Positions 11,885 to 49,997 are shown, counted from the stretch's first letter. The stretch: 64,000 nucleotides of DNA from an uncultured Erysipelotrichaceae bacterium (GCA_902795215.1 CADBKG010000004.1:17259-81258); one strand, 5' to 3'. Numbers and translations are program-made. Notes: a model not told the origin generated them from the sequence alone.

Positions 11885-11988
11885 TGTTAACATTTCACAG
11901 TTTTTTCATATAGTTTTAACAAATATTATAAATAAAAGTACTATCATTTTAATCGAACTTGTAGTATAATTCTATGATAGGTGACGAT

Positions 11989-12915: not shown

Positions 12916-12928
12916 AAAGGACATAAAA

Positions 12929-29371: not shown

Positions 29372-29485
29372 ATACAAATCGTTCACGCCAGTTCATCTCA
29401 GTACACATTTAAGGTAACACAAATACGGAAAATTTCAAAATCATTAATAATTTTTATGATATAATATTTATAGAGGTGGATACTG

Positions 29486-30271
29486 ATGAATAATAAACTG
29501 TTAAATGATTTTATTTCATATTTTGAAAACGATAAATATAAATTTGAAAGTTTTTGTAAAATATTTTTAACTTGGATCGGTTTTGATGATGTTATTGTTA
29601 CTCAAAAAAGTGGTGATAAAGGAATTGATTTGAGATGTACCAAAAAGGAAATTGATAGATTTGATACTACTGAAATCAAGTATATAATACAAGCTAAATG
29701 TTATAAACAAGGCAATAATGTTTCTGGACCTGAAATTAGAAATTTTAAAGGTACAAGAGAAACGATGGGAATAAGAAGACTATTTATTACAACGAGTGAT
29801 TTTACTAGCTCTGCTAAAGAAGAAGCTTCTGATCCTAATCAACCAGTTACTCTTATTAACGGAGAAAAAATTATTGAATATTGTAAGTCTTTAGGTGATC
29901 AAGTTTTTGATATTCAATTTTCTTGCAATAAATCTAAATTAGATGATTTATTTATAGAAAATAAAACTAAAGAAGTAACAGAATGTAAAATTGATGAAGT
30001 CATTAAAAAGATCACTAAAAATGATGTCAGGGCTAGAATCTTAAGAATTCCAAGTGAATATAAAAGTGAACTTAAAGGAAAGAAAAAATATAAATTAATT
30101 ATAAACGGTAATCCAGAGGAGTATTTTAATATTAGTTCAGATGAAACATATTTTGGAGGAGTTACAAAATACTATAAAACTTTTATACAGGATAAAGATT
30201 TTGTAGATGCACAATCATTATGGAAATTTGATAAACAAAATGAAGTAATTTATGTTGAAATAAAAATGTAA
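29486..30271 (+). CDS. Mrr-like (PD-(D/E)xK, Mrr_cat) restriction endonuclease-domain protein with an unknown C-terminal domain
   Basis: GDKGIDL ... IIQAKCY motif pattern of Mrr-type nucleases in the first ~130 aa. Confidence 0.6.
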   Translation: MNNKLLNDFISYFENDKYKFESFCKIFLTWIGFDDVIVTQKSGDKGIDLRCTKKEIDRFDTTEIKYIIQAKCYKQGNNVSGPEIRNFKGTRETMGIRRLFITTSDFTSSAKEEASDPNQPVTLINGEKIIEYCKSLGDQVFDIQFSCNKSKLDDLFIENKTKEVTECKIDEVIKKITKNDVRARILRIPSEYKSELKGKKKYKLIINGNPEEYFNISSDETYFGGVTKYYKTFIQDKDFVDAQSLWKFDKQNEVIYVEIKM

Positions 30272-30356
30272 TAATAAACATATTTATTATACATTGTGTA
30301 TGTAAATATGTTTTTTTATGTTATAATATTATTTAGAAATGGTAGGTGGTAATAAT

Positions 30357-31235
30357 ATGAAAAGAAAACAAAATTTAGTTCTTCAACCGGTATTGAAATG
30401 GGCTGGTGGTAAAAGACAATTATTACCACAATTGGAAAAATTTTTTCCTAAGAAAAATATAACTTCATATTACGAACCTTTTATAGGTGGAGGAGCTGTG
30501 TTATTTCATTTACAACCTAAAAAAGCTGTAATTAATGATTATAATGAAGATTTAATTAATCTTTATAGATGTATAAAAGATAATCTTGAAGAATTAATAG
30601 AAAAATTAAAATATTATGAAACAAAGAATGATTCTGAAAGCTTTTATGAAATTAGAGGAATTGATAGGACTGAAGAATATAAAAAATGGTCACCTGTTGA
30701 AAAAGCAGCAAGATTAATATATTTAAATAGAACTTGCTACAATGGATTATTTAGAATGAATAGTGCAGGGCAATTTAATTCACCTTATGGATCTTATAAA
30801 AATCCTTGTATATGCAATGAACCTGTTCTTAGAGCTATGAGTAAATATTTTAATGAAAATGATATTGAATTCAGAGCTGGTGATTTTGAGGATGCGTGTA
30901 AGGATGCTCCTAAAGGTTCATTTATCTATTTGGATCCACCATATGATCAATATGATGAACAACTAAACTTTGTTGGATATACTAAAGACGGTTTTACTAG
31001 AGAAGATCAAACTAGATTAAAGAAAATGTGTGATAGATTAATTGAAAAAGGCTGTTATGTTATGATTAGTAATTCAAAAACACCTTTTATAGTTGATTTA
31101 TATAGTGACTCATCTAAGTATGTTACATATACAATTAATACTGTTAATGCCAGAAGAAATATTAATAGTAATGCAAAGAAAAGGGGAGAAGTTGAGGAGG
31201 TTTTGATCATTGGAAAATTGGATATCAAAAAATAA
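30357..31235 (+). CDS. Dam-class (D12) N6-adenine DNA methyltransferase
   Basis: KWAGGKRQLL, EPFIGGGAV (motif I) and YLDPPY (motif IV); ATG at 30357 after AGGTGG. Confidence 0.85.
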   Translation: MKRKQNLVLQPVLKWAGGKRQLLPQLEKFFPKKNITSYYEPFIGGGAVLFHLQPKKAVINDYNEDLINLYRCIKDNLEELIEKLKYYETKNDSESFYEIRGIDRTEEYKKWSPVEKAARLIYLNRTCYNGLFRMNSAGQFNSPYGSYKNPCICNEPVLRAMSKYFNENDIEFRAGDFEDACKDAPKGSFIYLDPPYDQYDEQLNFVGYTKDGFTREDQTRLKKMCDRLIEKGCYVMISNSKTPFIVDLYSDSSKYVTYTINTVNARRNINSNAKKRGEVEEVLIIGKLDIKK

Positions 31236-32505
31236 TGAAGCATGGAATTTATTATTTAAAACATTTAATATCATAGATGAAATTAATAAAAATGGGTATT
31301 TTGAAATAACAGCAGATGATATAAAAACTTCTGGCAGAGAACCTCGTTTAATGACAAAGTTTGATAGTAGTGAAAATTTACCAGATATTTTTAAAAGTAA
31401 TCAACTAGCTATATTACCAATAAAACGTGGCTCATATATTATTGGTAAATTTCAAAATTATCAATTAGTTGATATTAATAATGATATAGATGTTGAAACA
31501 AAGTATTTGCCAGATTATATATCTACTATAGATTACAATAATATAACAAGTGAGGCTATATCTTTAAATGCTGCGTATATATCAGGAATGCTTGAAGATA
31601 TAATAGGTGAACCAGTGGTTCCGACAATTTCTGGTAGAATGGGAACTGGTGAATTTAAGTATCAAATATTATTAAATGATCAAAATTCATTTGATATAAA
31701 TGTTGAAAATTCTCAAATGGAAATTGATGGAAGTTATGAAGGTATTTCCAAATTTGTTATATTAGAAGCAAAAAATCATTATATGAAAGATTTTATAATT
31801 AGACAATTGTATTATCCATATAAGGTATGGAAATCTAATACTAATAAGGAAATAATACCTATAATGTTAATAAAACATGACAATATATTTAATTTCTTTG
31901 TATATAGTTTTGAAAATGAAAATGATTATAATAGTATTAAACTAAAAGAAATAAAACGATATATATTAGATGAACCTTATAATCCTATTGAAGTGTCTGA
32001 TATTATGAATGTAATGGAAAATATTGAATTTGCTACAGAATCTAGTGATGTTCCTTTTCCACAAGCTAATACCTTTAATATAGTATTAGATTTATTAGGA
32101 CAATTAAATGGACAAGATATGACTCCAGATGATATAACAAACTTTTTAGAATACGATCCAAGACAAACTAACTATTATATTGATGCTGCAAAATATCTAG
32201 GATTTGTAACAAAAGATAAGAAGTATACATTAACTGAATATGGTAGACGTATAATGAAAATGAATCATAAAGATAGAACGTTGGAAATTGTTAAGAGCAT
32301 TTTATCCCATAAGCCTTTTTATTTAGCAATGAAACAACAATTAGTGGATTTTAATTTTAATATTGAAGAAATTGCTAAGTCTATAGATGAATGTAGAAAT
32401 GAAATAAATAAAGAAAGTACAGCAAAGAGAAGAACAAGTACTGTAACTGCTTGGATAAAATGGATTTTAGATATAACAAATTATATAGATAGGATTGAAA
32501 TATAA
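31210..32505 (+). CDS. Putative type II restriction endonuclease partner of the Dam-class methyltransferase
   Basis: TTG start 9 nt after GAGGAGG, overlapping the MTase 3' end (translational coupling). No motif recognised; called from context only. Confidence 0.4.
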   Translation: MENWISKNNEAWNLLFKTFNIIDEINKNGYFEITADDIKTSGREPRLMTKFDSSENLPDIFKSNQLAILPIKRGSYIIGKFQNYQLVDINNDIDVETKYLPDYISTIDYNNITSEAISLNAAYISGMLEDIIGEPVVPTISGRMGTGEFKYQILLNDQNSFDINVENSQMEIDGSYEGISKFVILEAKNHYMKDFIIRQLYYPYKVWKSNTNKEIIPIMLIKHDNIFNFFVYSFENENDYNSIKLKEIKRYILDEPYNPIEVSDIMNVMENIEFATESSDVPFPQANTFNIVLDLLGQLNGQDMTPDDITNFLEYDPRQTNYYIDAAKYLGFVTKDKKYTLTEYGRRIMKMNHKDRTLEIVKSILSHKPFYLAMKQQLVDFNFNIEEIAKSIDECRNEINKESTAKRRTSTVTAWIKWILDITNYIDRIEI

Positions 32506-32527
32506 GCAGAAATGCTTATATTTTTTT
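32502..32527 (+). terminator. Rho-independent terminator after the R-M module
   Basis: ATAAGCA-gaaa-TGCTTAT hairpin followed by TTTTTTT. Confidence 0.75.
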
Positions 32528-32577
32528 AATGTTTAATAATATTTTGATAATATTTAACAAATATTGTGCGAATATTG

Positions 32578-32606
32578 TTGACAAATAGCAATAAAAATGA
32601 TATTTT
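32578..32606 (+). promoter_or_regulatory. Sigma-A-type promoter of the GHKL cassette
   Basis: TTGACA (32578-32583), 17-nt spacer, TATTTT (32601-32606). Confidence 0.6.
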
Positions 32607-32629
32607 ATTCGTGAAAGGAAGAGATTTTT

Positions 32630-32848
32630 ATGAATGCTAAACAAGAAAACTTTAAAAGGATTGCAGAAAATAGGGTGAACAAAATAATTGACATGATCTC
32701 TAAACTTGAAAATTTAAACAACACATCATTTTATGAATATTCTGATGAACAAATGGAAAATATTTTTAAAGCTATTCAGAAGGAATTAGACAAACAAAAA
32801 GAATTATTCAATAAAAGTAAAAAAAGTAAAAAGAGATTTGAGTTGTAG
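32630..32848 (+). CDS. Small helical protein, first gene of the GHKL cassette
   Basis: 72 aa; RBS AAAGGAAGAG; Lys-rich C-terminus. Confidence 0.5.
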   Translation: MNAKQENFKRIAENRVNKIIDMISKLENLNNTSFYEYSDEQMENIFKAIQKELDKQKELFNKSKKSKKRFEL

Positions 32849-32859
32849 GAGGTGTATTT

Positions 32860-34791
32860 ATGGGATTATTTAATAATATTTTAGGTAACAAAAATTACAA
32901 ATGGAAGTTTATAGAAAATGGTAATGGTCCAGAGTATAGTCTTGACTCTACTGATGTTGAAACATTCAAAAAGGATCCAATTGCGTCTATAGCTAGAGAG
33001 TTATGCCAAAACTCAATAGATGCTAGAAAAGGTACAGAACCGGTTGTAGTAGAATTTAAATCTTTCTATTTAAATACAAAAGATTTACCTGGAATAGATG
33101 CTTTAAAACGTGAAATGATTTGTTGCCGTGATTCACATCAACAAGGAACAAAATATTATAAAAAATTTGATAGTATGGTTTCTCACTTAGAAAGAGAACA
33201 AATATTATGCTTAAGAGTTAGTGATTACAATACTAAAGGCCTTGAAGGCGTTAAATCTTTTGATAGAAATAAGGCATTTTATTATCTAACTAAAGGAAAT
33301 GGATTAACTACTAAAGATAATGCAACTAGTGGAGGTTCAAAGGGAATTGGAAAATTTGCATCATTTGTTGCAAGTGATTTGCAAACAGTATTCTATTCTA
33401 CATTAAATGAAGATAACGAAGAAGGATATTTAGGAATTGCTAAGTTAGCATCAAGATTATTGGATGAAGAATCTGGGATGTGTACTACTGGGTATGGCTA
33501 TTATTGTTATACAGAAAAAGTTTTACCGATATTAGAAAAATTAGTTTTAGATAAAGAATTTACAAGAACTCAATCCGGAACTGATGTATATATTATTGAT
33601 TTTAGAGCAGAAGAAAACTGGAAATCTAGTATTATAACAAAAGTTCTAGATAGCTTTATGGTAGCTATAGATAAAGGAGATTTAATTGTAAGTGTTGATG
33701 GTACAAATATAAGCAATGAAACACTAAGAGATATTGTTTATACAAATGAAATAACTGAATCAGATAAAAGAAATATTATAGGTCAATATATATTATTGAA
33801 TGATGCGACAGTATTTAAAAAAGAAGTTGATATTCGCGGTTATGGTAACATCAAAATACTATTGAAGGATTTTAATAAACAAGAAGAATCATTAGCAACA
33901 AATAAATGTATTATGGTTAGATATCCATATATGAAAATAACTGATAAGAAGATTCCATTTCCTAAACCATCTTCAGCAATGTGTATAATTGAAAAAAATG
34001 AATTAAATAGTATATTAAGGTCAATAGAAAATCCACAACATACTGATTGGGAACCAAACAGAATTCAAGATGATGTTGAATTCAGGCTTGAAATAAAACG
34101 AGTAATAAAAACAATACGTAATGAAGTTCAATTATTTGCTAATGAATGTTTATTATCAGCTGATGATAAAGAATTAGATGTAGATGGAGCGGGAGAGTTC
34201 TTGGCAGATACTGAATTTGGTGGTACAAATGGAGATTCTGGAATAGAGAAGACAGAAAAGCCAAAAATTATAAATAGTAGAAAAGTAGTTTTGACTAATA
34301 ATGTTGGAGATAGTTCTAATGTTGATGATGTTAGTAATATTTTGGATGTTGGAACTAGAACTGATGATGGAGATGAAACTAATAGTACTGAAGGGCATAA
34401 TCAAGGCTCTGGCGGAGAAATTCATGAAGGTGAAAATAATAAACAAGGATTCAATGAAGATGGAACAGATGAAATACTAAGAACAGTTAATCTTAGTGGA
34501 ATTAAAGCTAAAACATTAATATTAGATAGAGAATCTGGAAAATACCTAATCAGTTTTACTTCTATTTACGATGAGCCTAATTGTGAAATGGAATTGTTTT
34601 ATTTAGATGATAATGGTTCAAAGTATAAAACAAATATTAAAAAATGTATATTAAATGGGGAAGAATATACTGTTGAGAATAATTTAGTTAAGAATATTAA
34701 ATTAGAAAAAGATAAAAAATATAAGTTTGAATTAGATACTAATTTAGACGACATTTATGTATGTGAGGTGAAGTTATATGCAAATAGGTAA
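32860..34791 (+). CDS. GHKL/Bergerat-fold (MutL/MORC/Hsp90-like) ATPase with an acidic low-complexity linker and a C-terminal beta-rich domain
   Basis: N-box ARELCQNSIDA, degenerate G1 box VSDYNTKGLEG, G2 box GGSKGIGKFASF; D/N/G-rich linker at about aa 440-530. Confidence 0.6.
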   Translation: MGLFNNILGNKNYKWKFIENGNGPEYSLDSTDVETFKKDPIASIARELCQNSIDARKGTEPVVVEFKSFYLNTKDLPGIDALKREMICCRDSHQQGTKYYKKFDSMVSHLEREQILCLRVSDYNTKGLEGVKSFDRNKAFYYLTKGNGLTTKDNATSGGSKGIGKFASFVASDLQTVFYSTLNEDNEEGYLGIAKLASRLLDEESGMCTTGYGYYCYTEKVLPILEKLVLDKEFTRTQSGTDVYIIDFRAEENWKSSIITKVLDSFMVAIDKGDLIVSVDGTNISNETLRDIVYTNEITESDKRNIIGQYILLNDATVFKKEVDIRGYGNIKILLKDFNKQEESLATNKCIMVRYPYMKITDKKIPFPKPSSAMCIIEKNELNSILRSIENPQHTDWEPNRIQDDVEFRLEIKRVIKTIRNEVQLFANECLLSADDKELDVDGAGEFLADTEFGGTNGDSGIEKTEKPKIINSRKVVLTNNVGDSSNVDDVSNILDVGTRTDDGDETNSTEGHNQGSGGEIHEGENNKQGFNEDGTDEILRTVNLSGIKAKTLILDRESGKYLISFTSIYDEPNCEMELFYLDDNGSKYKTNIKKCILNGEEYTVENNLVKNIKLEKDKKYKFELDTNLDDIYVCEVKLYANR

Positions 34792-35692
34792 AAAAGGATT
34801 TCCATATCCAATATTAAATAATGCAAAAAATTTCAACTGCTATGTAAATGATACGTATGCTTTAGAATTAGAAGAAGTTGAGGATGGTGATAATTACATT
34901 TTAAAAAATGTTCACATTGAGACTAATAGCAACCTTCTAAAAGAATTACTACGCAATAATAAAGCTAAAGCAATGATAATGATAGAATGTTCGCCAACTT
35001 TATTTAAATATTCTGAAGAAATTTCTATAGAGCCTAAAGATATCATAATTCCTATTAATAAGTTATCAGGCAGAGTTGAAATTTCAAGTATAACATACGC
35101 AACAGATACAATAAGTGATTTTAAAAGTTCTGATTTTATTGATGACTATTCCGGTTATTCATTTAAAATTGAAAAGTATTGTCCTATAGCATTAGATGAT
35201 GGAATTGTATCTAAAATAGAATATGATGACTTAGAAGATAAAAAAGTTTCATCAATATTTAGAGTTGTTCCAAGTTTTGACTCTGAAAGAAAAATAATGA
35301 ATGTTATAAACGATGATAAAATAATAAAAATTGAATTACCAAAAAAAGAACATGAAAATTTTGATAGACTAAATGGACAACCTATATTTCAACATATATT
35401 TTTTTCTATAATAATAATACCAGCTTTATCAATGTGCTTAAAAGAAATACAAGATGAATTAAAATATCAAGATAAAATTATAGAAGATATAATAGATGTA
35501 CATACATGGTTTATATCAGTTCAAAATTCATATAAAAAATTAACCGGAACTGAACTGACTGAAGAAATATTCATGGCACTTGATGTTCTAGAATTATCAC
35601 AAATGATTATGGATGATTGTATAGTAAACTCTATAGATGATTTCTACGATATAATCACAAGAACAAATGATTCAGATGAGGAGGAAATATAA
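34778..35692 (+). CDS. Unknown protein, cassette gene 3
   Basis: 304 aa; overlaps the upstream gene by 14 nt; no motif recognised. Confidence 0.5.
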   Translation: MQIGKKGFPYPILNNAKNFNCYVNDTYALELEEVEDGDNYILKNVHIETNSNLLKELLRNNKAKAMIMIECSPTLFKYSEEISIEPKDIIIPINKLSGRVEISSITYATDTISDFKSSDFIDDYSGYSFKIEKYCPIALDDGIVSKIEYDDLEDKKVSSIFRVVPSFDSERKIMNVINDDKIIKIELPKKEHENFDRLNGQPIFQHIFFSIIIIPALSMCLKEIQDELKYQDKIIEDIIDVHTWFISVQNSYKKLTGTELTEEIFMALDVLELSQMIMDDCIVNSIDDFYDIITRTNDSDEEEI

Positions 35693-36507
35693 TGAATAAT
35701 AATGTTATAAATATATCATTTATGAATGAAAAATTATTAGATACTTTATATAGTAATCCTAAAAAAGTTGCTGAATATATGAATGAAAATCCATATGATT
35801 CAAAATGGTTAAAACAATTACTAGATGAAACTCCATTTGAACCAAGAAAACAAAAAATAACAGATTTTGATTTGAAGTTAGCAAGTGATGGAAAATACAA
35901 AAATGTAGAATTAGAAAATGCTATTTCTTTATATGAACATATAAAAGATTTACCAAGATATATTCTAGTTGATAATAGATTTTGGCTTTGGCTAGAATTT
36001 GGTAAATTTTATAGAGTTGCATTACAAGCTATGCCTTTAACAACTGATACAAGATTGGAATACAGTTGGTTATTTAAGGAAGGTAAAAGAGGTATTTGGA
36101 GAAATACTTTTGCTAGGGGATATTTCTGGGTAGAATTTACAGTTGATGAATCAAGAAAAGATATTTATGAACTTACTAAATTTGTATTTGAAAAAACAGA
36201 AAGAATAAGAAACTTAACATTTGATAATAAATATAGAAGTGTTGTTTTAAATACAATTAGAGCAGAAAAGGATATTTATGATAAATATATTTCTGATCCT
36301 AATTATAAAGAGACAATGGAAAAATGTGAAAAAGGTATAGAAACATATAATATTTATACTTTCATAAGAAAATCATTGTCACTATATGGTTCAGCAAGAA
36401 TACTAGATTTTATGGATGATAAGGACTTATATGATGTTATATATGAAAAACTAGATAAAGCTGTTCAAGAAGTTCATAATGGTAATATTGAATATTTGAA
36501 GAAATAG
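35692..36507 (+). CDS. Unknown protein, cassette gene 4
   Basis: 271 aa; TAATG overlap with gene 3; Trp-rich helical region (NRFWLWLEFGKFY, YFWVEF). Confidence 0.5.
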   Translation: MNNNVINISFMNEKLLDTLYSNPKKVAEYMNENPYDSKWLKQLLDETPFEPRKQKITDFDLKLASDGKYKNVELENAISLYEHIKDLPRYILVDNRFWLWLEFGKFYRVALQAMPLTTDTRLEYSWLFKEGKRGIWRNTFARGYFWVEFTVDESRKDIYELTKFVFEKTERIRNLTFDNKYRSVVLNTIRAEKDIYDKYISDPNYKETMEKCEKGIETYNIYTFIRKSLSLYGSARILDFMDDKDLYDVIYEKLDKAVQEVHNGNIEYLKK

Positions 36508-36545
36508 AATGCTAAAAAGTATTATAAAATAAATGTGATAAAAAA

Positions 36546-36593
36546 GGGCGCTAGTACAGGCTTTGTTAAGAAGTTTTTGTAGTGGCGTTTTTT
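36546..36593 (+). repeat. Terminator-like hairpin element shared with 45618-45667
   Basis: GCGCTAGTACAGGCTT (16 nt) and AAGTTTTTGTA (11 nt) are identical in both copies; stem GCGCTAGTACA/TGTAGTGGCG plus a T-run. Confidence 0.6.
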
Positions 36594-36613
36594 AATAAAG
36601 GAAGTGATTTTAT

Positions 36614-38023
36614 ATGGCAATAACTGTAACAGATTATTTAAATATTGATAAAAGACAATTCGATGAATTAGGTGCGTTTGATAGTTTCCTTGATATTAAT
36701 TCAAAATTGTTTGTATCACCCATGTTATTAAAAAGAACAAATAATGAATATTTTATAGGCTCATATGAAAAAATACAAAAACAATTTAATATTATACTGA
36801 AATTGTTAAAAATATCTAAAAAAAGAGGAGATAGATTTTGGAATCAAGCTGTAAAAATGTTAGTTTCAAGAGAACAAAAAGGAATTTCTTTAGGATATGC
36901 GAAAACAAGTGATAAAGGCTCAGGTATATCCTATGAAATATCTGAAAATATAATTTCGGTAGCCAAAGAGTTTGTAGATATAGAAAAAGACTTTCCTGAA
37001 ATATTTGAAGTAATGTGCATATTTGAAAAAGGAATTGGTAGTGATCGTATCAGTGATATTATATTAAATAATATAAAAGATAAAATATATGGATATTCAG
37101 AATATATTTTTTCTCATTTTGATATTAGTAAAAAGAAAATAAAGTTTGAACAAAAAATATATAATTTACCGTTTAACGAATATAATAATGAACCAATTCT
37201 AGTTATAGATAGAAACCTGTTACTTGATTTACCAATTGCGGAGAATTTTAGTGATATTGATTATGTAGCATCATTTAATGAAAAAATTAGACAGGAATTT
37301 TCTAGTTATTTAAATATTTCTAATAAAAAGAAAAAGTTAGATAAAGATGAAATAAAGAGATTATTTATTGGGAATGATTCTTTCTTTAATAGTTTTTTAG
37401 AAAAATATAGAGAAGATGAAGTTTTACCTTATGATTTTGAAAAAGATAAAAACGGAGAAATAAAATGGTATTATATATCTAAACAATACGTAACTGAAAA
37501 TCCAATGAGATTAGAAAAAACAGAAGATGTATATGAAATAACCAAAAAAATATGTTTGCAGTTTAAATATTTAATTGAAGAAAAAGGATTGTGGAAATCT
37601 TTATATGACGATAGCGGAAATCCTTTGAATGAGAATCATAGTCAAATGTTATTTTTTGGTATTGCTGATTCATATTGTAAAGCTAATAATATTGATATAT
37701 CGAGAGAAAACAATAATGGCAATGGACCAGTAGATTTTAAATTAAGCAAGGGATTTTTCGATAAAATTGTAGTAGAAGTAAAAAAATCATCAAATCCTCA
37801 ATTATTACATTGTTATGAGGTTCAAATACCAATATATATGAATCAAGAAGAAGTAAAAAAAGCAATATATTTATTCATTGATCTTGGAGATAATGATGTA
37901 AGAGTTACAAAATTTAAAAATGAAATCAGCAGATATAAAGATACAAAAATAGAACTTATAGAAATAGATGGAAGAAAAAAGGAAAGTGCTAGCAAAAGAA
38001 CTAGATCTCAAAAAGAGTTCTAG
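36614..38023 (+). CDS. Protein with a C-terminal PD-(D/E)xK nuclease-like motif, cassette gene 5
   Basis: ...NGNGPVDFKLSKGFFDKIVVEVKKS... gives the D-x(n)-E-x-K pattern of restriction-endonuclease-fold enzymes; the N-terminal ~330 aa are unknown. Confidence 0.5.
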   Translation: MAITVTDYLNIDKRQFDELGAFDSFLDINSKLFVSPMLLKRTNNEYFIGSYEKIQKQFNIILKLLKISKKRGDRFWNQAVKMLVSREQKGISLGYAKTSDKGSGISYEISENIISVAKEFVDIEKDFPEIFEVMCIFEKGIGSDRISDIILNNIKDKIYGYSEYIFSHFDISKKKIKFEQKIYNLPFNEYNNEPILVIDRNLLLDLPIAENFSDIDYVASFNEKIRQEFSSYLNISNKKKKLDKDEIKRLFIGNDSFFNSFLEKYREDEVLPYDFEKDKNGEIKWYYISKQYVTENPMRLEKTEDVYEITKKICLQFKYLIEEKGLWKSLYDDSGNPLNENHSQMLFFGIADSYCKANNIDISRENNNGNGPVDFKLSKGFFDKIVVEVKKSSNPQLLHCYEVQIPIYMNQEEVKKAIYLFIDLGDNDVRVTKFKNEISRYKDTKIELIEIDGRKKESASKRTRSQKEF

Positions 38024-38033
38024 TTCCTTTTTT
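37998..38033 (+). terminator. Rho-independent terminator ending the cassette
   Basis: GAACTAGA...TCTAGTTC hairpin followed by a T-run. Confidence 0.65.
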
Positions 38034-38095
38034 GTAATACCTTTTTTCATAGTGATTTAACAATTTTTGATTATTTTTAAGATTACTTTTACATC

Positions 38096-40823: not shown

Positions 40824-41174
40824 ATGAATATTAGTTACACTAAAAAAGGTGATTATTTATTACCTAATTTAATATTAAAAGAAAAAGTACAATATAATAT
40901 AGGAAAATATGGATTATTAAGACTAGAGTATATTAAGAAAGAAAAATTAGGATTATATTTTGATTTACTTGTTAATGATACTTTAAATGAATATCTTCAT
41001 GATATAGATAATATTGTTATGGAGAAAGTGCAAAGTTTAATTAAAGAACTTGCTGAAAAAGAAAATATAAATGATAAGTTAAAACAAGATAATCAAATGC
41101 TTTGGGTAAGTAAAATGAATAATATTAAAAATAGAGCAGAAGAAATAATTCTAAAGGAGTATATCTATGTGTGA
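40824..41174 (+). CDS. tnpV: TnpV-like transposon-associated protein
   Basis: YTKKGDYLLPNL...QDNQMLWVSKMNNIKNRAEEIILKE resembles TnpV of Tn4451-family elements. Confidence 0.7.
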   Translation: MNISYTKKGDYLLPNLILKEKVQYNIGKYGLLRLEYIKKEKLGLYFDLLVNDTLNEYLHDIDNIVMEKVQSLIKELAEKENINDKLKQDNQMLWVSKMNNIKNRAEEIILKEYIYV

Positions 41175-41534: not shown

Positions 41535-42473
41535 ATGACAGATGAACAAATAAAAGAAATTACTAAGAATTTAACAGAAGATCAGATTAAACAATTATTA
41601 AAAATGTTGACTGAAAAGGATTTGAATACTTTAAAAGAAAAACTAGAAAAATCAGTTAATAATAATTTTATAATTCCATTAAGGAAGGCAAATAAACAAA
41701 ATATCAAATTATTATATAAAAATAATGATATTCGTAGAGAGACAACTAATTTATTAAATCAATCATTAATATCAATTAAGAATATACATTATTTAATAAG
41801 TAAAAAATCATTAGTAGATGCAAATACTTTATTAAGGTCATGCTTTGAAAATATAGTTATGGCTATGATGATATATTTTGATGACGAAACATACAATGAA
41901 TTTAAAATACTTGGATTAAAAGATGAGGAAAGAGAATATACAAATCTTTCTAAATTAAGGAATGGCTTAAAAAAGAAATTAAAAACAATAAGTCCAGAAA
42001 TGTTTAGCGAGATGAATAATAGAACAATAGGACACTTGTTAAAAGAATTTTATGATAAACTTTGTTTATATACTCATAGCACTTTAGTTGTTAACGCGAT
42101 GATAGAAGTTGGAATAAATAATGATGAAGATTTATTTATTTCTATTAACAAAGTAAATGTATATTTTTTAGAGATATTGGTTTATGCGTGTTTAAAATAT
42201 TTAAGTAAGAATGAAGAAATGTCAATAGATATTACTTATATACTATTTGGAATGTTTTTAATGTTATCAAGAATAGATAAAGATAAATATTCTGACGAAT
42301 ATATGAAAAGATATAATGATTTATTACATCCAGATATAAATGGTGAATATTTTAAAAAGAATACTCAAGATATAATAGAAATTCAAAAAATGGCAAAAGA
42401 GGTTAACCAAGCTATAGAAGATAATCCGGTTGCAATTATTAATTTATTAACTGAGTTATTAAAAGAATTTTAG
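41535..42473 (+). CDS. Hypothetical protein
   Basis: 312-aa ORF with RBS GGAGGT; helical; no confident motif. Confidence 0.45.
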   Translation: MTDEQIKEITKNLTEDQIKQLLKMLTEKDLNTLKEKLEKSVNNNFIIPLRKANKQNIKLLYKNNDIRRETTNLLNQSLISIKNIHYLISKKSLVDANTLLRSCFENIVMAMMIYFDDETYNEFKILGLKDEEREYTNLSKLRNGLKKKLKTISPEMFSEMNNRTIGHLLKEFYDKLCLYTHSTLVVNAMIEVGINNDEDLFISINKVNVYFLEILVYACLKYLSKNEEMSIDITYILFGMFLMLSRIDKDKYSDEYMKRYNDLLHPDINGEYFKKNTQDIIEIQKMAKEVNQAIEDNPVAIINLLTELLKEF

Positions 42474-42654
42474 AAATACAATTATTGTCTAGCCAGCACT
42501 GAATTTGTACTCCCGTACAAAATTCTTTTGTGGGATTACTCCCAAACCCTATTTTAAAAATTAAAAATTTGTAAGTATTTCAATGTCAAAATTAAAAATT
42601 TGTCGAATTATATGTTATAATAATATTGATTTGAAACTTTAGGAGTGAGAGAGT

Positions 42655-43311
42655 ATGAAAGAAAAATGTGGAGTAATTTATATATTAACTAATCCATCAT
42701 TTCCAGAGTATATCAAAATTGGATATGCTGACGATGTTGAAGCAAGAGTAAAACAATTAAATATTTCTGAGGCTGTTCCTTTTTCATTTCATATTTATGC
42801 TACTTTTGATGTAACTGAGAGATTAACTGATATAAAATTACACAAGTTTATAGATACTATAAATCCAGAACTTAGAAGTAAAGAAAAAATAGGAGATAAA
42901 ATTAGAGTTAGAGAATTTTATCATATGAGCCCAGAAGAAATGTATTCTGCATTTGAAAGTATGGCTGAAATAAATGGAACAACCAATAGACTTCATTTAT
43001 GGAAAGAAACAAATGAAGAAATAGAAGATAGGAAAGAAGCATTGTTATTATCAAAAAATAGACATCATTTTAAAAATATAAATTTTCATTCAAGTTTAAC
43101 AGGAAAAGATTATTATTCTAAAACAAATGAAGATGGAACTCTAGGTATATATGAAAAAGATACAGATAATGAAGTTCCAAATAATTCAAATCCCTCAAAA
43201 CGTCAAATTTTATATTCAGCACTTGAAGATTTAGGCGGAGATGTATCTAGTGGAAATACTTTATATCAATTAGAGCACAAATTAGAGAAAATTTTAGTTA
43301 GTAGGAAGTGA
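42655..43311 (+). CDS. GIY-YIG-like T5orf172 (MUG113) domain protein
   Basis: GVIYILTNPSFPEYIKIGYADDVEARVKQLN is the typical T5orf172 N-terminus. Confidence 0.65.
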   Translation: MKEKCGVIYILTNPSFPEYIKIGYADDVEARVKQLNISEAVPFSFHIYATFDVTERLTDIKLHKFIDTINPELRSKEKIGDKIRVREFYHMSPEEMYSAFESMAEINGTTNRLHLWKETNEEIEDRKEALLLSKNRHHFKNINFHSSLTGKDYYSKTNEDGTLGIYEKDTDNEVPNNSNPSKRQILYSALEDLGGDVSSGNTLYQLEHKLEKILVSRK

Positions 43312-43315
43312 TATT

Positions 43316-44437
43316 ATGGCTAATAACGAAAGTTTGAAAAGAGCAAAAAAAGAAAAAGATGATGAATTTTATACTGAATACTCAGACATAGAAAAAGAAA
43401 TGAATGCTTATCTAGAATATAACCCAAATGTTTTTAAAAATAAAACGATACTACTTCCATGTGATGATCCAGAGTGGAGTAATTTTACTAGATATTTTGC
43501 TCAAAATTTTGAATTACTAGGACTTAAAAAACTTATAAGTACCAGCTATGCTAACGATAAAAAAAGTGCAGTATTTGTTCAATTATCACTATTTGAGCAA
43601 GAAAGTCCTAAATTTGATAAGAATAAGACTAATTCACATGGGAAAATATTTACATTAGATAGAGATACAAATAAATCGGGTAGAATTGATATAAATGATT
43701 TAGAATGGGACTATCTAAAAGGAGATGGAGATTTTAGATCTGACGAAGTAAAAAAATTAAGAGATGAAGCTGATATTATTATAACTAATCCCCCTTTTTC
43801 ATTATTTAGAGAATTTCTTTCGTGGCTAATAGAATCTGGTAAGCAGTTTATCATTATTGGAAATGAAAATGATGCAACTACCAAGGAAACATTTCCATTA
43901 GTAAGAGACGGTGTTATGTGGTTAGGAAAAAATGCTGGTGATATGTCATTTAAAGTACCAAAAGATTCAGAACCACGAGAGACAAGATTTTGGATAGACG
44001 AAAAAGGGCAAAAATGGCGCAGTATGGGTAATATATGTTGGTATACTAATATTGACTTAAAAAGACGTCATACTGTACTTAATTTGATGACTATGCACGA
44101 TAACTTAAGATATAACAAACCTTTAATAAAAAAATTAGAAAAAGATTATGGACTAAAAACTTATCCAAAATTTGATAATTATAATGCTTTAGAAGTTCCT
44201 AGATATGATGCTATTCCATCTGATTACGATGGTGTAATGGGTGTACCAATAACATTTCTTAAACTACATAATCCCAGACAATTTAGAATAATAGGTCATA
44301 CTCATTCTGGAGATACAACACCAGAAGTGGAAAAGTTGAGAACTATTCCATCTAAACGTCACAGAGGCCATATTAATGGGAAACAGATTTATGATAGAAT
44401 TTTAATTCAGAAAGTGGATGGTGAAAATGAAAACTAG
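43316..44437 (+). CDS. EcoRI-methylase-like N6-adenine DNA methyltransferase
   Basis: [16 protein letters not shown]-terminus and catalytic [14 protein letters not shown] (NPPF) motif. Confidence 0.75.
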
Positions 44438-45611
44438 ATTAAGGACAGATTTAACTATTAGACAGATATGTGAAGGATTTCAATATAGTGAATCTGAAGA
44501 AAAAGGATTATTTGGTTGGGCAGGTAAATTAACTATTCAACCAGAATATCAAAGAAATTATATTTACGCTAATGGAAAAGATGATGTTGCTGTTATTGAT
44601 TCTTTATTAAAGGGTTATCCTATAGGATTAATTTATTTTGTTGAAACAGAAAAAGATAAATATGAAATTCTTGATGGACAACAAAGAATAACTAGTATAG
44701 GTAGATATGTAACTAATAAATTTGCATGGATTGATGAAAACGATATTCCATATAAATTTGAGTCACTTCCAAAAGATAAACAAGATAAAATATATAACAC
44801 CGAATTAACCATTTATATTTGCAGTGGTGAAGAGTCTGAAATAAAAGAATGGTTTAAAACAATTAATATTGCTGGTAAGCCATTAAATAACCAAGAATTG
44901 TTGAATTCTATTTATAGTGGACCATTTATTACTAAAGCAAAAGAGGTATTTAGTAATTCACAAAATTCTAATTTACATAAGTGGTTGAGTTATATGAAGG
45001 TTGAAGTAAAAAGACAAGGATTATTAGAAGTCGCTTTATCATGGGTTTCAAAAGATTGGGAAAAAGATGGTAATCTTGAAAAATATATGGCAGATCATAG
45101 ACATGATGATAATATTAATGAATTAACTTCATATTTTAATGATGTTATTAACTGGGTTTCAACTATATTTATTGATGTAAAAGATGAAATGCAATATATT
45201 AATTGGGGAAAAATGTACGAAAAGTATCATAAAAATCCTTATAATTCTAATGATGTTTCAAGAAAATTAAATGAATTATATAGTGATTACTTTGTAAATG
45301 ATAAAAAAGGTTGTTATGAGTATATATTAAATGGTTGTAAACAAGAAGATACAAAATTACTTAATATTAGACTTTTTGATGAGCCAACAAAAAAGACAGT
45401 ATATGAAAGTCAAACACAAAATGCTAAAATTAAGAACATTTCTAATTGCCCAATGTGTGTAATCGAAAACTTATCTAATAAAACAAAAATATGGGATTAT
45501 AAAGATATGGATGCTGATCATGTAACTGCATGGAGCAAAGGGGGATCTACTGACATTAGTAATTGTCAAATGCTATGTAGAACACATAATCATATTAAAG
45601 GAAATAGATAA
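44418..45611 (+). CDS. DUF262 (ParB-like nuclease) plus HNH endonuclease fusion, GmrSD-type type IV restriction-like
   Basis: [11 protein letters not shown] and [10 protein letters not shown] (DGQQR) motifs; C-terminal [35 protein letters not shown]. Confidence 0.75.
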
Positions 45612-45617
45612 TATTAA

Positions 45618-45667
45618 AGCGCTAGTACAGGCTTAAATATGTTTAAGTTTTTGTATTGCGCTTTTTT
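45618..45667 (+). repeat. Second copy of the terminator-like hairpin element (see 36546-36593)
   Basis: AGCGCTAGTACAGGCTT...AAGTTTTTGTATTGCGC plus TTTTTT. Confidence 0.6.
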
Positions 45668-45684
45668 AGTAGTAGGAGGTAGTG

Positions 45685-46875
45685 ATGTTAAGAATATATA
45701 TAGGACCTAATGGTTATGGAAAGACATATGCAATTAATAGTAAAATAGAAGAATTAAAAAAAGAGGATAAAAATAGAAAAGATATAATAATACTAAATTC
45801 TGAAATAGTTTTTGCAGATGAGATGAAGGATAGTGTTAATAATTCATTTGTTATGGAATATTTAATAGAAGAATTATTAGAAAATGATGATATTAATACT
45901 GCAAAAAATAATTATGAAAAATTAATAGACAAAAATGTAGAAGAGAATAAAAAAATGTATAATGATATTATGAATGAAGTGTTATCTCTTAATAATCAAC
46001 AGAGAAAAAAAGATGTTATAGATACTACATCTAGTAAAGAACATAAAAAACTTATCAAAATAAATTCAGATGATTTAAAGAATTCTATGGGTAGCGGTCA
46101 AAAATTGCAATTTTTATTAAAATTAATTGAAAAAAGCAATAAAAAATATATATTTTTAGACGAACCAGAGAATCATACACATCCTTCATTATTACACATT
46201 ACAGCTGGATTGATTAATAAGTTGAGTATAGATAAAGATGTGTGTATTGCAACTCATTCTCCAGAATTACTAAGTTTGTTAAATATTGATTTTAATGAAT
46301 TATATATTTTTAATGATCCAAATTATGGGAACCCTAAGAAAATAAATTTTAATGATGCGGTATCTATTTCAAAATCTATACATTTAGATAATTTAAATAA
46401 TAAATCAAAAACTTATTATAACGCATTAAGCTTTAAAAAAAATATAATAGAGTTACATAAAAAAGAATTTTTTGAGGCTATTTTTTCAAAAAAAGTATAT
46501 ATGATTGAAGGTATTAATGACTTATTATTTTTAAAATCATTATTAGTAAAAAATCTTGAGCAATATAATCAATATAGTATTTTTCAATGTTATGGAAAAC
46601 CTCATTATTTGCCTTTTATTAATGTTTTTGAACAATTAGGGATTGAGGTTGTGCCTTTATTTGATATTGACGATAAAAATGATAGCAATAATGTTTTGAT
46701 TAATGAAGAAATAAAAAAATGTAAGAAATATTTAGAATTTGACGATAATTTAGAAAATGAATTGAATTATTTGGGGAAAAAGACTGATACTACAGCTTTT
46801 ATTGAGTTTTTGGATAACTTTAATAATTATAAAAAATATAGTTCTATATTTGATGGAAGTGATGAAAATGTTTAA
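45685..46875 (+). CDS. Compact OLD-family protein (ABC-type ATPase plus Toprim)
   Basis: Walker A GPNGYGKT, signature-like MGSGQK, Walker B YIFLDEPENHTHP, ATHS; then Toprim-like VYMIEGINDLLF and PLFDIDDKND. Confidence 0.6.
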   Translation: MLRIYIGPNGYGKTYAINSKIEELKKEDKNRKDIIILNSEIVFADEMKDSVNNSFVMEYLIEELLENDDINTAKNNYEKLIDKNVEENKKMYNDIMNEVLSLNNQQRKKDVIDTTSSKEHKKLIKINSDDLKNSMGSGQKLQFLLKLIEKSNKKYIFLDEPENHTHPSLLHITAGLINKLSIDKDVCIATHSPELLSLLNIDFNELYIFNDPNYGNPKKINFNDAVSISKSIHLDNLNNKSKTYYNALSFKKNIIELHKKEFFEAIFSKKVYMIEGINDLLFLKSLLVKNLEQYNQYSIFQCYGKPHYLPFINVFEQLGIEVVPLFDIDDKNDSNNVLINEEIKKCKKYLEFDDNLENELNYLGKKTDTTAFIEFLDNFNNYKKYSSIFDGSDENV

Positions 46876-49180
46876 TATATTAAATTTAGATCCATTAGAA
46901 TTTGAAAAGTTTTGTATGGATTTTATGGAGAAAAAATTAAATACAAAATTTAAAAGATTTGGTCCGGGAAAAGATGATGGAATTGATTTAATAAGTTTAG
47001 ATGGAAAAATTATATGTCAATGCAAACGTTATAAGGACTCATTAAATTTAAAAACAGTTTGTCAAAATGAATATAATAAAATAAAAAACACAGAATTTGA
47101 AAAATACTATTTACTTACAACTGCAGAACTGGGTAAAAAAATAGTAGAAAATATATATGAAATTTTTCACGAATATATGGATGATTACTCTTATATAATA
47201 GGGAAAACAGATATTGATGACTTTTTATCTGACACTAATAATATAGATGTTTTGAAAAAAAATCATAAATTATGGCTATCTTCATCTATTGTTTTAGATT
47301 TGTATTTAAATAGATATTCTGATGCAATAAGTAAGGTAATTATAAATGATTTTGAAAATGAAACAAAATTTTTTGTTGAAACCAAAGCTTATTATAATGC
47401 AGTGGATATTATTAATTCAAATGGAATAATCTTATTTGTCGGAGATCCTGGTATTGGAAAAACAATAACATCAAAAATGTTAATAAGATATCTTTTAGCA
47501 AATAATAAAGATTATAAATTGACAACAGTATCTAATAACGACTTATCAAAATTAATAGAGTCTGTACATCAAAATGATGATCCTGAAATAATATTTTTAG
47601 ATGATTTTTTAGGTCAAACTTCATTATCTTTAGATGATAAGTTGATTAATGATTTAAAAAATTTATTGAAGTTAACTACAATTTTTAATAATAAGAAGGT
47701 TATATTAAATAGTAGAATTACTATTTTAAACAAGGCAAAACATGAAAAAGAAGAATTTGAAAAATTATTAGATGAAATAGGTATAAAAGAGTGCCTAATT
47801 GATGTAAATGATTTAAGTCAATTAGATAGGGCGAGAATATTGTATAACTTAATGTATCATAATGGTGTTACAAAAGAATCATTTAATACTATAAAAAAAG
47901 ATAACAATTATAATTTAATAATTAATCATAAATCTTTTAATACACGAATCATTGAAATGTGTTGCAAAAGATCTAATAGGGTAGCTTCTGAGAATTTTTT
48001 TAATTATATTATTGAATCATTAAATAATCCAAAAGATATTTGGAAAAGTGAGTTTGAGAGAATAGAAACGTGTGATGTAGTCCTAATGTATCAATTGTAT
48101 ACATTAGGAAATAATTATATACCAGTTGATTGCCTTCATAAATCTGTTACAAATTATCTTTGTAATTCTAATTCTGAAGTTGAAAAATATAGCTTTGAAG
48201 ATTCAATAAATAGATTGAGTAAGTCATTAATAGGAATTGCAATATTAGGCAAGAAAAAATATATAAGTGTTCTAAATCCATCTATTAATGACTATATTCA
48301 GAATTACCTTTTAGATAATTTGGCTGAATTAAAGAAAATTTATGATAATGCATTATATATAGAGCAAATAGATAAAATAGTGAATATTTTACCATCTATT
48401 TTAGAAGATAAAATTGAGGGCTTTGAAAAATTAATTGCATATAATCAATATAATTCGTTCATGAGTAATCAATATTTAGACAAAAAGAAGAAAATTAATT
48501 TTATATTAAAAAATAAATATTTTGATAAAAATTTAATTAATTATATTAGTGATTTATTTAATATAGATATTGGTGGAAATTATTTAATTAAAATGGCAAT
48601 GGACGAGAAAATACGAGAATATTATAATTTAGAAGAAAAACTATCTAATATGGATTTAGTTTCAAAGAGGTTTTGTGATGCAGACTATGATTATATAGAG
48701 GAATTATTTGATTATTATTCAACTCAAAAAATTCCATTAACTATTATTGAAGAAAGTTTAGAAGAAATATATGTAAATGCTTTAGAACAAAAATTGACAA
48801 TTATTGGTGAAGAATATGCAAAAGAATTGATAAATGAAGCATCTGCAGATGAAAAATTTGTTGGTGAAATAGAAGAAATTGAGGTAAATAGTGATTTTGT
48901 ATATGAATTAAGAACACAAGTAGAGGATGAAATTAAAAGTCAAAGTTTTGAATTGATTAACTTAATTAAAGAAAAAGGTTATGAGATGGAAAATATTAAA
49001 ATAGATGTAGACATAATAATTGATAATATTTGTATTGAGATGCTTCTTGATGACGATTTGACGTCATTTTTAAAGGACTTAGCTGTAGAGAATATGGAAT
49101 ATGATTATTCAGATATGGGAGCACGTGATACAATTACAATTGATGATATATTTAATCAAGAATATGACATTATTAATTAA
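46862..49180 (+). CDS. Mrr-like nuclease fused to a STAND/NACHT-like P-loop NTPase with a helical C-terminal region
   Basis: N-terminal GPGKDDGIDL...IICQCKRYK (Mrr_cat-like); Walker A GDPGIGKTITS; Walker B IIFLDDFLGQ. The start at 46862 overlaps the upstream stop. Confidence 0.6.
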   Translation: MKMFNILNLDPLEFEKFCMDFMEKKLNTKFKRFGPGKDDGIDLISLDGKIICQCKRYKDSLNLKTVCQNEYNKIKNTEFEKYYLLTTAELGKKIVENIYEIFHEYMDDYSYIIGKTDIDDFLSDTNNIDVLKKNHKLWLSSSIVLDLYLNRYSDAISKVIINDFENETKFFVETKAYYNAVDIINSNGIILFVGDPGIGKTITSKMLIRYLLANNKDYKLTTVSNNDLSKLIESVHQNDDPEIIFLDDFLGQTSLSLDDKLINDLKNLLKLTTIFNNKKVILNSRITILNKAKHEKEEFEKLLDEIGIKECLIDVNDLSQLDRARILYNLMYHNGVTKESFNTIKKDNNYNLIINHKSFNTRIIEMCCKRSNRVASENFFNYIIESLNNPKDIWKSEFERIETCDVVLMYQLYTLGNNYIPVDCLHKSVTNYLCNSNSEVEKYSFEDSINRLSKSLIGIAILGKKKYISVLNPSINDYIQNYLLDNLAELKKIYDNALYIEQIDKIVNILPSILEDKIEGFEKLIAYNQYNSFMSNQYLDKKKKINFILKNKYFDKNLINYISDLFNIDIGGNYLIKMAMDEKIREYYNLEEKLSNMDLVSKRFCDADYDYIEELFDYYSTQKIPLTIIEESLEEIYVNALEQKLTIIGEEYAKELINEASADEKFVGEIEEIEVNSDFVYELRTQVEDEIKSQSFELINLIKEKGYEMENIKIDVDIIIDNICIEMLLDDDLTSFLKDLAVENMEYDYSDMGARDTITIDDIFNQEYDIIN

Positions 49181-49336
49181 TGAAAAAATAATATATGGGA
49201 GTACAGTTTGTATTCCTTTTTTCTTTTTTGTACAATATCTTTTTATTTTTATTTGATGTAAGATGGAAACACCTAGGAGAAGTAGTATGTAAAAGTGCAC
49301 TTTTATAAAGATATATTTTATGTATGATTCTATAGA

Positions 49337-49780
49337 ATGGATACTATGGAAGAATTTATAAATCCAATTATACCAATATCGGTATTAAGTGATAGTAGAA
49401 TATCATCTTTAGAAAAGTTATTATTACTACACATAATTTCTTTGTGTAAGAATAAAGGATATTGTTGGGCTACAAATAGTTATTTTATGAATATTCATGG
49501 ATATAGTAAACAAACAATATCTAAAAGTAATTCTAAACGTACAATTACACTTGACCATGTATTAAAGAATAAGATACAGGGTATTAAAGAAAACTTTAAT
49601 TCTAGTATTCAATCAAACTTTAAACAATATAAAAAAAGTAATATAAATAAAATATATTACAAGGATGAGTTGGGTAATGAATATTGGAATGGACAACTAA
49701 TTAAAAGTGAAACACCAACTGAAGAAGAACTTGAAGAACTGAATAAATTATTAGAAGAATTTAAAAAAGAGGAGGAATAA
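49337..49780 (+). CDS. HTH-domain protein (phage/plasmid replication-type HTH), possibly truncated
   Basis: LEKLLLLHIISLCKNKGYCWATNSYFMNIHGYSKQTISKS resembles HTH_36-type N-termini; the remainder is atypically short. Confidence 0.4.
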   Translation: MDTMEEFINPIIPISVLSDSRISSLEKLLLLHIISLCKNKGYCWATNSYFMNIHGYSKQTISKSNSKRTITLDHVLKNKIQGIKENFNSSIQSNFKQYKKSNINKIYYKDELGNEYWNGQLIKSETPTEEELEELNKLLEEFKKEEE

Positions 49781-49826
49781 AAATATTATGGGAAAAATTA
49801 TCATAGAATTTTTTAAGAGGTGAAAA

Positions 49827-49922
49827 ATGTTTAATATTAAAGAAACCTTTAAAAAAGATGATAATTCTACTATTAATGATTTGATAATTGGATATATAAA
49901 ATGTGTTTTAATAAAATCGTAG
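49827..49922 (+). CDS. Small ORF upstream of recombinase A (shortened homologue of 58605-58784)
   Basis: RBS AAGAGGTG; 31 aa; FKKDDNSTINDLIIGYIK aligns with FKDASISLNEIITEVLK of the element B ORF. Confidence 0.35.
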   Translation: MFNIKETFKKDDNSTINDLIIGYIKCVLIKS

Positions 49923-49997
49923 ATTTGTTATATGTCTATTTTAATGGTAGACTCAAGTCAGGCTTTAAATGTTATACAAAAGAAAGGAGTAGAAGCT

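Follow-up and report, generated by a model that had tools for sequence, protein, structure and literature searches.

The association of GHKL ATPases with restriction-modification (R-M) systems is an established theme. Prokaryotic MORC/paraMORC ATPases embedded in R-M loci were proposed to perform ATP-driven looping or clamping of DNA (Iyer, Abhiman and Aravind, 2008; PMC2292703), and in the validated anti-phage protein VcSduA, a Shedu protein of the paraMORC3 type, a GHKL ATPase domain is thought to control the effector (PMC12137116). Lactococcal AbiR (Twomey 2000; Yang 2006; reviewed in PMC13064643) flanks a type II R-M system, comprises sigma70-like, ParB-like and nuclease-Snf2 helicase proteins, and needs the LlaKR2I methylase, being toxic without it. 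A further candidate, PDC-M33, is represented in PADLOC-DB 2.0.0 by three protein models. Here we describe a locus that was compared with all of these. It lies in 64,000 nt of DNA (hereafter the window) of an uncultured Erysipelotrichaceae bacterium (GCA_902795215.1, CADBKG010000004.1:17259-81258), in which the region 32578-38033 was followed up. A preliminary description had seen in this region one self-contained operon of five genes, a GHKL ATPase gene among them. We find with high confidence, as regards both boundaries and composition, that the true unit is a cassette of ~6.2 kb and two operons (~30226-36522). Operon 1 encodes a DpnM-like Dam methyltransferase (MTase) and an overlapping PD-(D/E)xK restriction endonuclease (REase). 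Operon 2 encodes a small protein termed s, the GHKL ATPase and two proteins termed B and C, the last three forming the PDC-M33 core. Judged by its sequence, the cassette is a member of a catalogued, experimentally uncharacterized PADLOC candidate, with an architecture that is broader than the catalogue entry.

The five open reading frames (ORFs) of the preliminary description, encoding 72, 643, 304, 271 and 469 amino acids (aa) on the + strand, were recovered at their places, including the overlaps of 14 nt between the GHKL and B genes and of 1 nt between the B and C genes. When the defense models of PADLOC-DB 2.0.0 were scanned (E up to 0.1), PDC-M33A matched residues 13-641 of the 643-aa GHKL protein (32860-34791; E = 6.1e-134), PDC-M33B matched residues 1-293 of the 304-aa protein B (34778-35692; E = 1e-51) and PDC-M33C matched residues 7-259 of the 271-aa protein C (35692-36507; E = 7.9e-27), which is also recognized by Pfam DUF6339 (1.3e-22). 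With three genes matched at full length, the view that they fit no named system did not hold. We compared 9 metagenomic and 80 genomic loci that were found via the GHKL protein (numbered with the prefix L below; GHKL identity 34-92%). They derive from Bacilli, Erysipelotrichaceae, Clostridia, Anaeroplasmataceae, Veillonella and Mycoplasmopsis. All of their ORFs were clustered into families and gene-order maps were drawn, in which the arrangement GHKL-B-C is the constant element; de-replication at 70% GHKL identity gave 35 lineages, 22 of which have full flanks. Among the 89 loci the GHKL gene is present in 89, the D12-class MTase in 62, a protein of ~846 aa in 37 and the REase family of the window in 19. 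The 304/271-aa pair, whose conservation beside GHKL genes had been proposed as a check, does accompany them (B in 85 loci, C in 76), and s is found in 67. Clustering of the ORFs of related loci revealed no further gene family in more than 7 loci.

The limits of the cassette follow from nucleotide homology. Between the window and the loci L010-L013 and L001, homology extends from 30226/30304 to 36506-36522, with its start just 5' of the methylase gene and its end at the gene C stop codon. The block starts at 29440 where it includes the Mrr_cat gene (29486-30271), which lies just upstream of the D12 MTase gene. Mrr_cat is part of the shared block solely in L010 and L012 and absent from other relatives, and we therefore regard it as a variable neighbor and not as a component. 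No convincing direct or inverted repeats flank the block ends (~30226 and ~36522). Within the block, all on the + strand, the MTase gene (30339-31235, 298 aa) is overlapped by 26 nt by the gene of the REase candidate (31210-32505, 431 aa, DUF6996-DUF6997-DUF7226), which is followed by a terminator-like hairpin with a T-run (32498-32530; -10.3 kcal/mol, z -4.4, equalled by no shuffle; hairpin strength is given as folding energy relative to shuffles, z). The MTase and REase genes stand, together with Mrr_cat, directly upstream of the followed-up region, as had been described. The promoter-like TTGACA-17-TATTTT with a TG extension (32578-32606, + strand), a consensus match, is indeed present 5' of the gene of s (32630-32848). 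As such hexamers are not enriched over shuffled sequence (85 observed vs 76.9 +/- 10.2), the promoter is plausible but statistically not distinctive. A strong intrinsic-terminator-like hairpin with a U-run (36543-36598, + strand; -20.4 kcal/mol, z -4.7) separates gene C from the 469-aa gene (36614-38023, + strand), and the terminator proposed at the end of the latter was found as a hairpin with a T-run (~37998-38036, + strand; -13.9 kcal/mol, z -4.2). The hairpins that follow the REase gene and gene C divide the region into three transcription units, namely M-R, s-GHKL-B-C and the 469-aa gene. A self-contained five-gene unit is not compatible with the intervening terminator or with the distribution of the 469-aa gene, which is seen in the window and in 0 of 88 related loci.

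The enzyme pair of operon 1 proved to be more than a chance neighbor. The MTase matches Pfam MethyltransfD12 (1.8e-66) and TIGR00571 dam (4e-85), and its best solved relative is DpnM (2dpm, 1.2e-78), a proximity that suggests G6mATC methylation. The REase matches the PADLOC model REase_II PDLC03513 over its full length (8.9e-81), and its EID...ExK residues (D173, E186 and K188 in L001 numbering) are at least 95% conserved in 14 homologues. The genes at 30339-32505 thereby combine an MTase with an endonuclease that has a predicted PD-(D/E)xK site, the composition of a type II R-M system. The gene order M-R-s-GHKL-B-C with the REase of the window recurs among related loci. More widely, 19 of the 22 de-replicated lineages with full flanks have a D12 MTase no farther than 9 kb from the GHKL gene. 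Where the two genes share a strand, the MTase is upstream in 8 lineages and downstream in 9, and in the remaining 2 it is encoded on the opposite strand; this varied placement indicates that the linkage survived repeated rearrangement. In ~30 loci, roughly half of those linked to an MTase, the MTase is present with no recognizable REase; complete DpnII cassettes (D12 MTase, N6_N4 MTase and PF04556 REase) are found in L022, L076 and L084. Even among very distant homologues (26-32% identity), an MTase or an R-M system is encoded no more than a few kb away. HsdS and HsdM (no HsdR) and a small ORF precede GHKL-B-C on an L. salivarius plasmid; on a Priestia plasmid, s-GHKL-B-C adjoins a MutH/Sau3AI-family REase and Dcm; on a Lactococcus conjugative plasmid, the module adjoins an AlwI REase and a D12 MTase; and in a C. 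innocuum temperate phage, s-GHKL-B-C sits beside the integrase with a DNA MTase ~1 kb downstream. These data show that the Dam-type MTase, with its REase, is a conserved partner of the GHKL trio, a relationship missed when the Dam-class R-M pair was taken for a mere neighbor.

The two parts of the cassette differ in how fast they change. In L004, identity to the window is 86% for the MTase, 72% for the REase, 66% for s, 53% for the GHKL protein, 47% for B and 49% for C, a steep gradient in which the ATPase module evolves much faster than the accompanying R-M pair.

The GHKL protein consists of an N-terminal domain with Bergerat motifs, a middle region, an acidic low-complexity linker and a beta-rich C-terminal domain; the linker had been noted before and is present. 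The peptides ELCQNSIDA (residues 47-55) and GGSKGIGKFASF (residues 158-169), from which the Bergerat/GHKL motifs had been read, are invariant or nearly so in homologues. Motifs I-IV (E47xxxN51xxD54; D122xNTxG127; G159xxG162xG164K; G240-T-D242) are invariant in 20 homologues of 33-61% identity, and in the middle region M358-K359-I360 is invariant as well. The sole recurrent Pfam match is HATPase_c_3, which 13 of the 20 diverse N-terminal domains compared return at an E value of 7.8e-4 at best, short of the gathering score; the protein of the window scores 16.5 bits at a cut-off of 25. At least 993 homologues were found, none of them named. We also considered the C-terminal domain as a nuclease, because it contains YLDD...EVK. 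This is unlikely, as the lysine varies (K/R) and the domain is predicted to be all-beta.

Proteins B and C, described before as two unknowns, remain without a meaningful structural neighbor in the PDB after modeling with AlphaFold2 and Foldseek searches. The model of B (predicted local distance difference test score, pLDDT, 85.9; predicted template modeling score, pTM, 0.53) has a beta-sandwich N-terminal part, a helical C-terminal bundle and an acidic tail, and Foldseek against the PDB yielded weak FnIII-like matches only (template modeling score ~0.2, E at least 5e-3). B carries an invariant E70, D140-D141 and D154-x-K156 (DDG...DxK) and was therefore a candidate PD-(D/E)xK nuclease; this was rejected because the model consists of beta-sandwiches and a helical bundle with only those weak FnIII-like matches. 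The model of C (pLDDT 92.6, pTM 0.89) is mostly alpha-helical, and Foldseek found no structural neighbor (best E 1.1 in the PDB and 2.2 in BFVD). As far as the models tell, a known nuclease fold is absent from both proteins. PHROGs gave no match for GHKL, B or C, and sequence and profile searches of the PDB with GHKL, B, C, s, the REase and the 469-aa protein returned nothing meaningful.

The small helical protein s, the 72-aa product of the leader gene, is a regular part of operon 2. It is present in 19 of the 22 de-replicated full-flank lineages and is better conserved than the enzymes, with 69-76% identity where the GHKL proteins share 44-46%. Homologues occur on the Priestia plasmid and in the C. 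innocuum phage, and no informative Pfam or PDB match was obtained. On the Succiniclasticum chromosome (L076, ~15400-16530, minus strand), s is not upstream of the GHKL gene and heads a DpnII-type operon, convergent with GHKL-B-C, in which it is followed by the D12 MTase, the N6_N4 MTase and the DpnII REase. This position ties s to the methylase side too. We further observed that B always ends in acidic residues (DEEEI, GDDDE or similar), that s has a basic tail (KKSKKRFEL) and that the acidic linker of the GHKL protein is long; these charged elements could be used for electrostatic docking or could act as DNA mimics.

An optional component of the relatives is the ~846-aa protein, which carries a central Sigma70_r4 helix-turn-helix (HTH; 1.6e-11) and is encoded between s and GHKL in 37 loci but not in the window (for example L007:5501-8008, where it overlaps both neighbors, and L087:590-3130). 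In other loci, a 473-aa protein encoded upstream of s shares the C-terminal ~230 residues with it (hhalign probability 100). The ~846-aa protein was rejected as a homologous substitute for the REase (hhalign probability 0.1).

How might the GHKL module benefit from a methylase in its vicinity? A role of the cassette in defense is likely, in our view. The reading that we favor, with chances that we judge to be about even, is that of a methylation-linked GHKL defense module that has its GATC methylase in common with a type II restriction enzyme. The MTase would mark host DNA, probably at GATC. The GHKL ATPase would dimerize on ATP, as MutL or MORC proteins do, and together with B, C and s it would act on unmethylated incoming DNA by clamping or looping. 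The DNA might then be handed to the adjacent endonuclease, or replication might be blocked or an abortive response elicited; given that no effector could be identified, hand-off to the REase, a non-nucleolytic block and a novel catalytic fold are the alternatives. The methylase would in this way protect the host from the REase and the GHKL module alike, comparable to M.LlaKR2I in the case of AbiR. This mechanism is drawn by analogy with R-M-embedded MORC/paraMORC ATPases (PMC2292703), MutL-MutH-Dam and AbiR (PMC13064643), and the gating of the GHKL module by methylation seems to us plausible, if somewhat short of an even chance. The architecture predicts that toxicity and phage escape are governed by methylation.

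We also entertain, more tentatively, a stronger version of the proposal, which we think possible but rather unlikely. Here s-GHKL-B-C and a Dam-type methylase would form a distinct type of methylation-gated immunity in which a MORC/MutL-like ATPase clamp and two subunits of folds not seen in the PDB read the methylation state. No classical nuclease would be needed to stop unmethylated invaders; topological entrapment, compaction or a catalytic fold in B or C that is as yet undescribed might serve, for example, and the module might plug into varied methylases, be it Dam/DpnM, HsdMS or the Dcm of Sau3AI-type systems. If a phenotype is validated, two confident models without a structural neighbor would point to a mechanistically new branch of methylation-dependent immunity.

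Several observations weigh against a methylation-linked GHKL defense module. The GHKL assignment is well supported at the level of motifs and draws on these together with sub-threshold Pfam matches; sequence and profile searches of the PDB with the GHKL protein returned no match, and an hhalign comparison with E. coli MutL aligned motif I only. For none of GHKL, B and C could an effector activity be identified. The GATC (G6mATC) target of the window methylase is a prediction from kinship. In 3 of the 22 full-flank lineages there is no nearby D12 MTase. In one of these, an Anaeroplasmataceae lineage, GHKL-B-C lies amid housekeeping genes (cinA, udk, priA and fmt), and both s and an MTase are missing. 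Lineages of this kind imply that the methylase is not obligatory in cis. Moreover, the R-M genes look like an ordinary type II pair and form a separate operon, so that co-mobilization without functional coupling is conceivable. A search of the literature returned no experiment on PDC-M33 and no mention of PDC-M33 or DUF6339, and literature on GHKL and methyltransferase defense provided no relevant characterization. The Anaeroplasmataceae loci that lack s and a nearby methyltransferase are L041-L043, L048, L049, L067 and L080; their GHKL-B-C is possibly a minimal, domesticated form of the module.

Some of these observations also feed the main rival, according to which s-GHKL-B-C is an autonomous sensor-effector resembling abortive infection systems, which moves with R-M genes as a result of defense clustering and for which the methylase is functionally irrelevant. 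We regard this as a serious contender that is nevertheless rather unlikely. It would account for the separate transcription units of the R-M pair and s-GHKL-B-C, for PADLOC models that cover A, B and C only, for the Anaeroplasmataceae and the few other loci lacking a nearby MTase, and for the slot after gene C, which is filled by unrelated defense genes (Hachiman, a SAVED gene or the 469-aa nuclease). It does not explain why the gene kept nearby, in 19 of 22 lineages and in four different relative placements, is a D12 MTase in particular (in distant homologues, another MTase), when no other gene family reaches more than 7 loci. The ~30 loci that have an MTase and no REase are likewise hard to reconcile with a hitch-hiking R-M system.

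Less likely still is that the GHKL module lacks an effector of its own and is a MutL-like accessory that activates or regulates the adjacent GATC-type REase, as MutL activates MutH. The MutL-MutH-Dam precedent, discussed in PMC2292703, the lack of a nuclease fold in B and C and the presence of adjacent REases of several forms (the DUF6997 type here, DpnII in L022, L076 and L084 and the MutH/Sau3AI family on the Priestia plasmid) are in line with this idea. These REases, however, belong to unrelated families, which makes a single specific mechanism of activation by protein-protein contact unlikely, and about half of the MTase-linked loci have no recognizable REase to be activated.

We consider it very improbable that the module does not confer immunity and instead serves a mobile element, for instance by controlling its replication or epigenetic state in connection with Dam methylation. 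Its presence on plasmids and beside the integrase of a temperate phage, the Sigma70_r4 partner protein of related loci and the want of an identified effector would fit such a role. Against it stand the dense defense islands here and in relatives (Hachiman, AbiD, AbiG and KAP NTPase), the selection of the module as a defense candidate by PADLOC and the divergence of GHKL, B and C, which is much faster than that of the methylase (53%, 47% and 49% vs 86% in L004), as should be the case for arms-race genes. Finally, the model of the preliminary description, in which the region 32578-38033 is one operon of five genes and the 469-aa PD-(D/E)xK nuclease is driven by the GHKL ATPase, can be dismissed almost entirely: the genes do share a strand with a gap of 106 nt and the nuclease motif is genuine, but none of the 88 related loci has the 469-aa gene, even where GHKL is 92% or 98% identical, common nucleotide homology does not go past the gene C stop codon, a strong terminator separates the two genes and the 469-aa family is large, stands alone and has members in phages.

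The 469-aa protein therefore stands outside the unit, given its absence from relatives, the end of homology at the stop codon of gene C and the strong terminator in between. It is an unrelated single-gene neighbor in a variable cargo slot, independent, separately terminated and not conserved, and the earlier view of it as the effector of a nuclease-based system is not supported. The loci whose GHKL proteins are 92% (L010) and 98% (L099) identical to that of the window have other genes after gene C, in L099 a 798-aa protein and a SAVED gene; in other relatives the slot holds Hachiman HamA/HamB or a serine recombinase. The protein itself (DUF8370+DUF8371) belongs to a stand-alone family, which at 50% identity forms at least 1747 clusters, nearly all of ~470 aa over their full length, and is also found in phages (phrog_30194, 2.7e-99). 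Its PVDF...VEVKK motif is present as described. All 26 family members compared keep D374, E388, K390, Q404 and Y408, a RecB/Cas4-like signature (D...(D/E)xK, QxxxY). A Cas4 hidden Markov model matched 1 of the 26 members only (5e-4), and the RecB/Cas4-like label is thus motif-level evidence. PDC-M36A aligns with the N-terminal half of the protein only (residues 5-209 to profile positions 8-216 of 457, 8.3e-12), a match shared by 26 of 26 sampled members (best 4.8e-17), and no PDC-M36 partner gene was identified beside the 469-aa gene. Adjacent defense genes at a single locus should accordingly not be merged into one 'system' in annotation.

The hairpin junction in front of the 469-aa gene (36548-36623) recurs with 82-91% identity at L010:1-76, 6.5 kb upstream of the cassette, and at L002:2236-2280, where it lies directly upstream of a 797-aa gene of the family that follows gene C in L099. 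From this recurrence, the junction may be a marker of the variable cargo slot.

The cassette is surrounded by a long defense island (window 11974-14047 and 41535-51584), as the preliminary description had held. A compositional signal that would set the island apart is missing, since the GC content is ~26% across the entire window. The island holds AbiD (9e-58) and a trypsin-like protein, TnpV (40824-41174), T5orf172/PDC-S57 (42655-43311), a second type II R-M pair with an EcoRI-methylase-like protein (43316-44437) and a REase_II/NsnA-like protein (44418-45611), an AAA ATPase (45682-46875), a TIR-like PDC-S73 protein (46802-49180) and an ORF (49932-51584) whose DNA matches the large serine recombinase gene of L004 at ~72%. 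L004 and L014 have several pieces of this island in a different order.

We finally compared the cassette with described systems. MADS and Mza were rejected: the eight proteins encoded at 29486-38023 match none of the models mad1-mad8 (E up to 0.1), and no Mza model matches any protein of the window (E up to 0.1), MzaA matching merely the 40-residue HTH of the ~846-aa protein of relatives (1.2e-5). MADS, an eight-gene operon of ~22 kb with a kinase and a specificity subunit, also differs in size and composition. AbiR resembles the cassette as a multi-gene module that flanks a type II R-M system, and AbiRi, described as sigma70-like and aligned to an 820-residue model, recalls the ~846-aa Sigma70_r4 protein. 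A plasmid search with the latter for a link to AbiRi gave RpoD HTH matches only. AbiR lacks GHKL, B and C, the window in turn lacks the Sigma70_r4 protein, and membership was rejected because PADLOC and Pfam scans revealed no sigma70-like, ParB-like or nuclease-Snf2 helicase protein in the window.

VcSduA differs in being a single polypeptide with a C-terminal DUF4263 nuclease, a domain that the GHKL protein of the cassette does not have, and PADLOC reported no Shedu match. In MutL-MutH-Dam mismatch repair, the methylation state serves as the strand discriminator. Like this system, the cassette brings together a GHKL ATPase and a Dam-family methylase, to which some loci add an endonuclease of the MutH/Sau3AI or DpnII type; the cassette differs in having no MutS and in its setting, which is that of mobile defense islands and not of repair. 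With the MORC/paraMORC systems it has in common a GHKL ATPase with intact motifs I-IV that is tied to DNA methylases and endonucleases in mobile defense loci. In contrast to these systems, there is no superfamily II helicase partner, the folds of B and C are not represented in the PDB, and the GHKL protein is too divergent for the Pfam gathering score or for any GHKL protein of the PDB. The cassette might become a bacterial model for MORC-like GHKL ATPases that read epigenetic marks. The closest likeness is to PDC-M33: models A, B and C match the GHKL, B and C genes at full length and in the same order, and the three genes are consecutive and overlapping, which places them in the same family. 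PDC-M33 has no model for the 72-aa leader, the D12 methyltransferase, the optional ~846-aa Sigma70_r4 protein or the REase. The architecture thus extends past the three catalogued genes to a highly conserved 72-aa leader and an almost obligatory methyltransferase, of the Dam/DpnM type or another, often in loci that have no REase.

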